Program-made: the position numbers and the translations under genes | Notes under the pieces: generated by a model | Told to the model about the DNA's origin: nothing | Seen by the model: the letters and a program-made list of their open reading frames with translations, nothing else | Databases searched by the model: none | NCBI RefSeq assembly: GCF_003334335.1 | Contig: NZ_QOWQ01000087.1 | Strand: one strand, 5' to 3' | DNA from: Escherichia coli | GTDB taxonomy: Bacteria; Pseudomonadota; Gammaproteobacteria; Enterobacterales; Enterobacteriaceae | Length of the DNA: 2,991 nucleotides | In this document: in pieces, positions 2,557 to 2,938 of the stretch | Layout of the letters: each line of letters begins with the position of its first letter | How positions within the stretch are numbered: position 1 is the first letter of the stretch

Positions 2557-2885
2557 CCTCCTGAGGGTTGGTAATTAAGGAGTTCTCCACGGGTCAGGTG
2601 GAGTGCGTGCGCCGGACACGGGTGAGCATCCGGCACTGACAGTTTACTGAAAAGGATATATCCCTGAAAAGTCAGGGCATAACACGAAAGCGCCCGGCGA
2701 AGTTAGTCTCTCTGTATAGGTCGTCATTAAATTTTCGTCGACCGCGCGCTTCCGGTTGTGGCACTCCGCGAAATGGCGCGGCGGTAAGTATGGCGGGGTT
2801 ATTCCTTCCCCGTTGAGGACACCGGGTTGTCAGGTTGACCATACGCTTAAGTGACAACCCCGCTGCAACGCCCTCTGTTATCAAT
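2557..2885 (+). other. GC-rich, highly structured non-coding stretch upstream of dicF; probable processed precursor region of the dicB-operon transcript
   Basis: No credible ORF on either strand. Sharp rise in GC content after 2557. Hairpins: gccgga/tccggc (2611-2616 with 2630-2635), ccctga-aaag-tcaggg (2662-2677), ccgcgc/gcgcgg (2742-2747 with 2776-2781), and ggttgtca/tgacaacc (2825-2832 with 2853-2860) with an alternative partner gcggggtt at 2793-2800. In K-12 DicF is excised from a long precursor by RNase E and RNase III. Confidence 0.4.
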
Positions 2886-2938
2886 TTTCTGGTGACGTTT
2901 GGCGGTATCAGTTTTACTCCGTGACTGCTCTGCCACCC
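2886..2938 (+). ncRNA. dicF: DicF small RNA homologue (prophage-encoded ftsZ-targeting sRNA), with its T-run immediately downstream
   Basis: Sequence tttctggtgacgtttggcggtatcagttttactccgtgactgctctgccaccc matches the 53-nt E. coli K-12 DicF as I remember it at 52 of 53 positions (K-12 ...ctgccgccc, here ...ctgccaccc), followed by ttttt. Genomic context fits the Qin order dicA - ydfABC - dicF - dicB: a repressor and small ORFs upstream on the same strand. Confidence 0.7.

Follow-up and report, generated by a model that had tools for sequence, protein, structure and literature searches.

A predicted pseudoknotted RNA upstream of dicF in Qin-like prophages recurs in the ban-operon leader of phage P1

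Introduction

In phage HK022, the put RNA suppresses termination in cis via the beta-prime zinc-binding domain. In Bacillus, the EAR (eps-associated RNA), said to have been described by Irnov and Winkler in 2010, reportedly is a processive antiterminator that lies inside an operon. The C4 and CI antisense RNAs of phages P1, P7 and P4 are excised from leaders of early or immunity operons and have a cloverleaf-like fold. The putL and putR transcripts of HK022 are cis-acting antiterminators whose action is independent of the sequence of the terminator (PMC9378689).

The small RNA DicF is described as a 190-nt species with an RNase III-dependent 5' end and a 53-nt species with an RNase E-dependent 5' end (PMC10448788). 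In the DicF literature searched, the 190-nt species (Faubladier 1990; Ragunathan 2023, PMC10448788) is regarded as an intermediate of processing. That literature mentions neither a conserved fold nor a pseudoknot, nor an occurrence of the element in P1 and in phages that lack DicF.

Few prophage products of E. coli K-12 have been studied as closely as DicF and DicB, and P1 too is a classic phage. Nonetheless, the conserved fold described here, which lies beside DicF and in the P1 ban leader, has no counterpart in Rfam 15 or in the papers searched.

Results

Genomic setting

We analysed a stretch of 2,991 nucleotides of E. coli DNA (hereafter the window), the sequence of which is found unchanged in chromosomal prophages of E. 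coli. The RefSeq annotation and PHROGs matches indicate that the window lies in the early-left (dicB) operon and the immunity region of a Qin-like lambdoid prophage. According to the same two sources, a replication gene, the ydaT gene and then a cro-like regulator lie on the - strand. A repressor-like gene occupies 1063-1482 on the + strand, followed by ydfA (1747-1899) and a gene of 133 aa (1911-2312). The DicF sRNA with its own intrinsic terminator is located at 2887-2938 on the + strand (Rfam RF00039, 70.1 bits against a gathering score of 48, E = 1e-14), and dicB lies just past the end of the window. The interval under study, 2557-2885, is an untranslated spacer of this operon and a mosaic of separable modules, called modules A and B below. 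DicF falls outside the interval, and its terminator is the stop signal that follows module B here.

In K-12-type Qin, ydfC and dicB are separated by 567 untranslated nt, most of which are these same 320 nt; the gap carries no annotation. At least part of the 329-nt interval was found in 4429 of the 5426 complete E. coli genomes, often in multiple copies. The longest open reading frame within the interval (70 aa, 2672-2884, - strand) had no PHROGs match. The initial annotation had set a GC-rich interval against AT-rich flanks. With 54.7% G+C in the interval, this description holds for the left flank (2227-2556; 35.5%) but not for the right flank (2886-2991; 49.1%); the window as a whole has 46.1%.

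The left border of the interval overlaps the start of a gene on the opposite strand. Two - strand reading frames, 2468-2590 and 2272-2556, match residues 1-23 and 22-92 of phrog_18692, a 92-residue family of unknown function (E = 1.9e-10 and 7e-45, respectively). The gene runs from 2551 to 2272 on the - strand, antisense to the dicB operon, and its start signals lie at 2549-2563, with the ribosome-binding site AGGAGG at 2557-2562 and the ATG at 2551-2549. In the window it is frameshifted near 2470-2500, and its RefSeq annotation covers the 3' part only (2272-2502). The promoter of this antisense gene should lie in the left part of 2557-2885, on the - strand.

Two further repeat families were seen elsewhere in the window. 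The motif TACCYNYAGGTW has seven matches over both strands, against 0.23 expected, at four sites (992-1027 and 1525-1561); two of these sites lie between the divergent regulator genes and two form an inverted pair at 1525-1561. On these grounds, the 16-bp 'bidirectional terminator' that had been called at 1525-1561 probably represents the left operator and promoter of the early-left operon. The replication (DnaT-like) gene contains, at 16-74, four to five repeats with GTGACA at 10-bp spacing, which look like origin iterons, comparable to those in the lambda O gene.

Module A and the putative RNase III helix

BLAST searches of E. coli genomes and phages found 2566-2760 (module A) and 2755-2877 (module B) independently of each other. 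Hence, the 329 nt do not form the single unit for which they had been taken.

Module A (about 2566-2754, + strand) consists of small hairpins and one long irregular helix, and itself occurs in several mosaic versions. Sequence and folds place a hairpin CUCCAC/GUGGAG at 2585-2603 (+ strand), in a 5' part that has three unrelated versions among the homologues. The RNAalifold consensus of 37 sequences contains, also on the + strand, a hairpin GCCGGA/UCCGGC at 2611-2634 with an invariant stem and a variable loop, a hairpin CCCUGA-AAAG-UCAGGG at 2662-2677, and a long irregular stem-loop at 2678-2760 in which 2678-2700 pair with 2738-2760. The module A stems are nearly invariant, so that covariation evidence for module A is lacking; a variant of the hairpin at 2662-2677, CUCUGA...UCAGAG, noted by eye in the 37-sequence alignment, is compensatory. 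The first 9 nt of the same hairpin (CCCUGAAAAGUCAGGG) are shared with lambda boxB. A boxB-like identity was rejected, as stem and loop differ and neither a boxA nor an N gene was seen.

The long helix, with about 20 bp arranged as runs of 6+2+6+3+3, has a hypervariable tip (2701-2737). Counting back from the DicF terminator by the published 190 nt (PMC10448788) places the RNase III end at about 2750-2754. This position falls in the 3' strand of the long helix, and only 1-5 nt separate it from module B and its closing helix P0. From this geometry and the published length, the helix 2678-2700/2738-2760 is the probable RNase III substrate that gives the 190-nt DicF species. A helix of about 20 bp that contains the 5' end of this species is what the predicted structure offers, with the end placed by length. 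The 190-nt species consists of module B, a linker and DicF, and module B makes up its 5' two-thirds.

Fold and covariation of module B

Module B (2755-2869, about 115 nt, + strand) is predicted to fold into a four-way junction with a loop-to-junction pseudoknot, built from the helices P0, P1, P1a, P2 and P3 and the pseudoknot PK, all on the + strand. The closing helix P0 (GUUGUGG/CUGCAAC, 2755-2761 with 2863-2869) is paired in 93% of the alignment cells; U-G alternates with U-A and G-U with G-C, and the helix is weak in phage P1-type copies. Helix P1 (CCGCG/CGCGG, 2766-2770 with 2777-2781, loop AAAUGG) is paired in 98.5% of the cells and has one-sided changes only. P1a (CGGU/ACCG, 2782-2785 with 2821-2824), which encloses P2 and the 5' strand of the pseudoknot, is paired in all cells (100%) and shows U-A to C-G in three P7-type sequences. 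P2 is a variable hairpin (GGGG/CCCC, 2795-2798 with 2808-2811); three of its four pairs changed on both sides (GC, CG, UA and AU), and the stem is retained while the loop varies in length and sequence. Five of the seven pairs of P3 (GUUGUCA/UGACAAC, 2826-2832 with 2852-2858) changed on both sides, with UUGU/ACAA replaced by UAAC/GUUA in the Izhakiella type (L116) and U-A by C-G in phage P1 types. The 19-nt loop of P3 is nearly invariant, and the helix may extend to 2824/2860. Finally, the pseudoknot joins GUAUGG (2788-2793) to CCAUAC in the P3 loop (2839-2844); it is paired in 100% of the cells, with U-A changed to C-G in three distinct P1-type rows and to U-G in two rows.

The first alignments of module B held four and then eight sequences (P1, P7, cdtI, F1055, pPE4), in which compensatory changes were already present. 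Further copies were obtained by a pattern scan of viral contigs, by a scan of one genome per species for 100,044 species, and by BLAST of plasmids; the P3 loop was partly fixed by the search pattern of the viral-contig scan. In the alignment of 65 distinct sequences fitted to a covariance model, 97.0% of the cells were paired and 12 of the 33 pairs changed on both sides; these changes reflect few independent events, the effective sequence number is 1.5, and the hosts are all Enterobacterales. None of 500 shuffles was as good, and controls with slid partners gave 1-5 pairs changed on both sides. An alignment of 60 sequences made with MAFFT gave a similar result (96.3% of the cells paired and both partners changed in 10 pairs, a result equalled by 0 of 500 shuffles). 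The compensatory changes affect five of the six helices, including the pseudoknot, and extend across copies from phage P1, lambdoid phages, Citrobacter, Trabulsiella and Izhakiella. A comparative alignment in search of such changes had been proposed in the initial annotation, and module B is where they were found. The same annotation had allowed that the structure might be explained entirely by known RNase III and RNase E sites; the covariation of module B goes beyond those sites. Judged by these compensatory changes, module B is an independently conserved pseudoknotted RNA. With the covariance model R1, module B of the window scores 151.1 bits and that of K-12-type Qin 150.9, compared with 107 for the P7 copy and 99 for the P1 copy.

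The folding energy is less telling. On the + strand the interval has a z-score of -1.70 (4 of 100 shuffles as good); taken separately, 2755-2869 has -1.8 and 2557-2754 has +0.27. Contrary to the initial annotation, which had called it stably structured, the interval is thus not exceptionally stable. The z-score of the - strand is better (-3.09). We nevertheless take the + strand as the RNA strand and rejected the - strand as the functional strand of module B, because the conserved helices contain many + strand G-U pairs.

These data bear on the idea that module B has no function and is a conserved joint at which modules of mosaic phages meet, or a sequence that spread recently, with incidental structure. 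High identity among the E. coli copies, the narrow range of hosts and the unexceptional folding energy would all agree with this idea. It leaves unaccounted for, however, the compensatory changes in all helices except helix P1, seen in several genera, and the retention of the P2 stem next to a loop that is free to vary. We consider it very unlikely.

Alternative pairings

Mutually exclusive hairpins had been proposed within the interval, with two 8-nt segments competing for one target. Both complementarities are exact: GCGGGGTT at 2793-2800 can pair with AACCCCGC at 2856-2863, and GGTTGTCA at 2825-2832 with TGACAACC at 2852-2859. The shared target exists too, but at 2852-2863 instead of 2853-2865. 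Three perfect 8-mer pairings were counted against 0.79 expected (at least three in 10% of the shuffles), and the overlapping arrangement of alternative pairings arose in 0.5% of 1000 dinucleotide shuffles. One of the two hairpins (2825-2832 with 2852-2859) is helix P3, which is conserved and carries compensatory changes. Its rival (2793-2800 with 2856-2863) is not conserved: 82.5% of its cells are paired, which reflects a run of G opposite a run of C and was equalled by 286 of 500 shuffles, there is zero compensatory change, and the pairing is broken in P1-type and several lambdoid variants. The 5' segment of this rejected pairing (2793-2800) is taken up by P2 and the pseudoknot.

If pairing of either 2793-2800 or 2825-2832 with 2852-2863 decided read-through, as in a riboswitch or attenuator, such a device would make use of both exact complementarities and of their rarely encountered overlap. 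Moreover, the multi-helix junction, the pseudoknot and the invariant unpaired bases give module B the look of an aptamer. Against this, the pairing 2793-2800/2856-2863 lacks covariation and is lost in the P1 types, and the competing segments lie within the conserved fold, at least 38 nt before the terminator stem. The terminators differ widely, with no conserved complementarity between module B and terminator, and no Rfam riboswitch model matched module B. The attenuator- or riboswitch-like switch of the initial annotation is in our view highly improbable.

Searches for known families

Rfam 15 was scanned with permissive thresholds for matches to the window, to 2740-2885 and to the P1 leader, which yielded DicF and chance-level matches only. 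The DicF model had its sole match at 2887-2938, with none within 2557-2885 and none in P1. The best Rfam match to module B was mascRNA, a tRNA-like RNA, whose 14.3 bits (E = 1.5) fall far below its gathering score of 42.5 and are at chance level. ARAGORN reported 0 tRNA or tmRNA genes, and with E values of up to 10 allowed, the Rfam model of C4 matched neither the window nor the P1 leader. In the literature searched on DicF, the P1 ban operon and put, the fold of module B is not described. Module B matches no family of Rfam 15 and, judged by these searches, appears to be a new RNA family. One segment, GGCGGTAAGTATG, resembles the ops consensus of RfaH only after one base is deleted.

Distribution and genomic position

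Module B alone is common to P1/P7, cdtI, Stx2c phages, Salmonella F1055 and pPE4, and the flanks are unrelated. The scan of the 100,044 species genomes indicates a narrow host range, the Enterobacterales. In the ban-operon leader of P1 and P7, some 45 nt separate the C1-controlled P1ban promoter from the start of module B, which is followed by a plain strong terminator, by tRNA-Asn and tRNA-Thr, and at a greater distance by ban; promoter and terminator are about 190 nt apart in P1. The copies in cdtI and Ayreon precede all genes of the early-left operon and are found about 280 nt downstream of a strong pL-like promoter, which agrees with the consensus at 11 of 12 positions. Neither phage has an annotated N gene, a statement that concerns annotation only, and R1 found no second copy of module B, as an analogue of putR, in the whole cdtI genome. 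In the Qin types, module B comes after ydfABC or their analogues and before dicF-dicB. In all cases it is sense to a repressor-controlled early operon, with genes of that operon past the terminator.

Several records deserve comment as to their source. Phage vB_Apl-pPE4 (L006, about 2606-2760) combines an E. coli-type DicA/YdaT immunity region with module B and a tandem duplicated DicF-like unit, and its recorded host, Actinobacillus, is doubtful. Four short contigs from metagenome bins (L142, L143, L145 and L146), assigned to Collinsella, Bacillota and Lachnospiraceae, carry identical or near-identical E. coli prophage or P1 sequence and are probably bin contamination. Hits in Butyricicoccus (L137) and Streptosporangiaceae (L140) were discarded as chance matches to the pattern.

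Linkers and terminators behind module B

A single-stranded linker at 2870-2886 (+ strand) connects module B to DicF, with the start of the DicF model at 2887; according to PMC10448788, this 5' end depends on RNase E. Read by eye, all 49 distinct downstream flanks contain a G+C-rich hairpin with a U run that starts 7-57 nt past module B. A scripted terminator criterion recovered 39 of the 49, and scored the remaining ten flanks on a later, more stable structure. The units of linker and terminator fall into at least four unrelated types (DicF, UGCUGUGUGUAGUCUU, CCCAUGUUGAUUACC and P1), of which the P1 unit is a plain terminator. Module B is much better conserved than the linkers and terminators after it. 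At the level of sequence, these units suggest a family of DicF-like sRNAs that have different seeds and share one upstream domain.

Directly after the terminator behind module B, Ayreon (L133, 4675-4762) has a long inverted repeat, ACAAAACAGAGAAG...CTTCTCTGTTTTGT, which encloses about 50 nt. The same repeat occurs in the cdtI, F1055, L021 and L116 types, just before the first early-left gene, and may be a second processing or regulatory hairpin.

The exchange of units behind a constant domain could mean that module B is a passive scaffold, which protects the long form and presents the linker to RNase E, without action on the polymerase and without a partner. Two lines of evidence would fit. 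Module B is combined with at least four DicF-like linker-terminator units that have different seed regions, and, according to PMC10448788, the 190-nt species builds up when RNase E is not active and the 53-nt DicF requires RNase E. For such a role, however, any stable hairpin would suffice, which leaves the pseudoknot, the invariant loop bases and the conservation between P1 and lambdoid phages unexplained, and in P1 the unit to be presented is only a terminator. Hence, we regard a mere scaffold as unlikely.

Discussion

Our preferred reading, which we hold tentatively and would not call probable, is that module B acts in cis on RNA polymerase and sets the read-through of the adjacent terminator, by analogy with HK022 put or Bacillus EAR. 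Module B would modify the elongating polymerase, put- or EAR-like in action but a member of neither family. Some polymerases would then pass the terminator into dicB/kil and the recombination genes, or in P1 into the tRNAs and ban, and others would stop and release the small RNA. In the Qin types, the 5' strand of P0 would first be held in the RNase III helix, as GUUGUG (2755-2760) can pair either with CAUAAC (2678-2683) of that putative helix or with 2864-2869 in P0. Since GUUGUG belongs to both, the predicted structures imply that module B would close fully only once the RNase III helix has been cut or melted.

Several observations point in this direction. The terminators behind module B share no sequence, which makes a pairing-based attenuator unlikely and favours an action for which the sequence of the terminator is immaterial. 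Module B is better conserved than what lies downstream, and its invariant bases in loop and junction are shared by P1 and lambdoid copies, which argues for a conserved partner rather than a passive hairpin; the sequence comparisons suggest that this partner is probably recognised in a sequence-specific manner. Furthermore, PMC10448788 describes read-through transcripts from DicF into dicB-ydfD in K-12 and reports that no internal promoter was found. As operon genes lie past the terminator and a search in K-12 gave no internal promoter, read-through must occur. According to the same study, the terminated ydfABC-dicF transcript is dominant in K-12 and the read-through form is seen only with RNase E inactivated (PMC10448788), so that any antitermination would be partial. 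Against an action in cis speak the lack of similarity to put, the single copy per genome and the low diversity of module B. In addition, its proximity to the terminator fits equally well with an sRNA gene that ends at that terminator.

The last point leads to another explanation, namely that module B is a stable non-coding RNA acting in trans on a conserved host protein or RNA, for instance as a tRNA-like decoy. It would be released by RNase III at the 5' side and an RNase E cut at the 3' side, or in P1 be transcribed straight from P1ban, and the terminator would mark the end of its gene. The compact, cloverleaf-like pseudoknotted fold with a 7-bp closing stem and invariant loops would suit such an RNA, as would a level of conservation far above that of the linkers and terminators. 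Furthermore, module B is closely bracketed by the two processing ends, that of RNase III at about 2750-2754 and that of RNase E at 2886/2887, and the span from promoter to terminator in P1 is again about 190 nt. However, no RNA of about 115-135 nt is on record, and the published blots were probed for DicF (PMC10448788); ARAGORN and Rfam gave no tRNA-like assignment above chance level (mascRNA included); and a free-standing gene need not always precede the protein genes of an operon. We find a stable RNA of this kind rather unlikely. If it nonetheless existed, it would be a widespread phage RNA with a host target.

Returning to an action in cis on the polymerase, a more specific version, which we consider somewhat doubtful, is that module B represents a class of cis-acting RNA unrelated to put and EAR that binds E. 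coli RNA polymerase and lets early transcripts pass DicF-type and later terminators. Such binding would explain expression past the leader terminator in lambdoid prophages without N and in the ban operon of P1. Control of read-through by module B would likewise explain how the toxic dicB/kil genes and the tRNA-ban genes of P1 are expressed past a strong leader terminator, and it would add a third, unrelated type of antiterminator RNA.

Compared with known RNAs, module B shares with tRNA a four-way junction, a 7-bp closing stem and a tertiary pairing between loop and junction, and in P1 it lies upstream of tRNA genes. It differs from tRNA in helix lengths and linkers and has no recognisable T loop or anticodon loop, in line with the ARAGORN result. 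With the C4 and CI RNAs it has in common an origin in an operon leader and a cloverleaf-like fold, but it does not match the C4 model of Rfam, and target sites complementary to module B were not identified. The P1 record (NC_005856) contains a 'dicF-like region' at 68791-68892 that overlaps the 3' half of module B and the P1 terminator. This label is a note on similarity; the conserved part is module B and not DicF, and P1 has its own linker and terminator.

Like EAR, module B is pseudoknotted, about 120 nt long and located between genes within an operon, not only at the start of one. In contrast to EAR, it occurs in another phylum and has no Rfam match, and its antitermination is putative. 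A common origin with put was rejected, as R1 had no match in the put regions of HK022 at E up to 10. A 9-mer common to put and module B (GCGCGGCGG) has different structural roles in the two RNAs and is taken as chance. Moreover, put consists of two stem-loops of about 73 nt, in contrast to the pseudoknotted four-way junction of about 115 nt that makes up module B, and HK022 has both putL and putR, whereas module B occurs once per genome and in the left operon only. What module B shares with put is that it is a folded RNA in the early operon of lambdoid phages without N, as judged by annotation, and that in P1, cdtI and Ayreon it lies downstream of a repressor-controlled promoter and ahead of terminators. 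The two RNAs would also share an action that is independent of terminator sequence, which for module B is a proposal.
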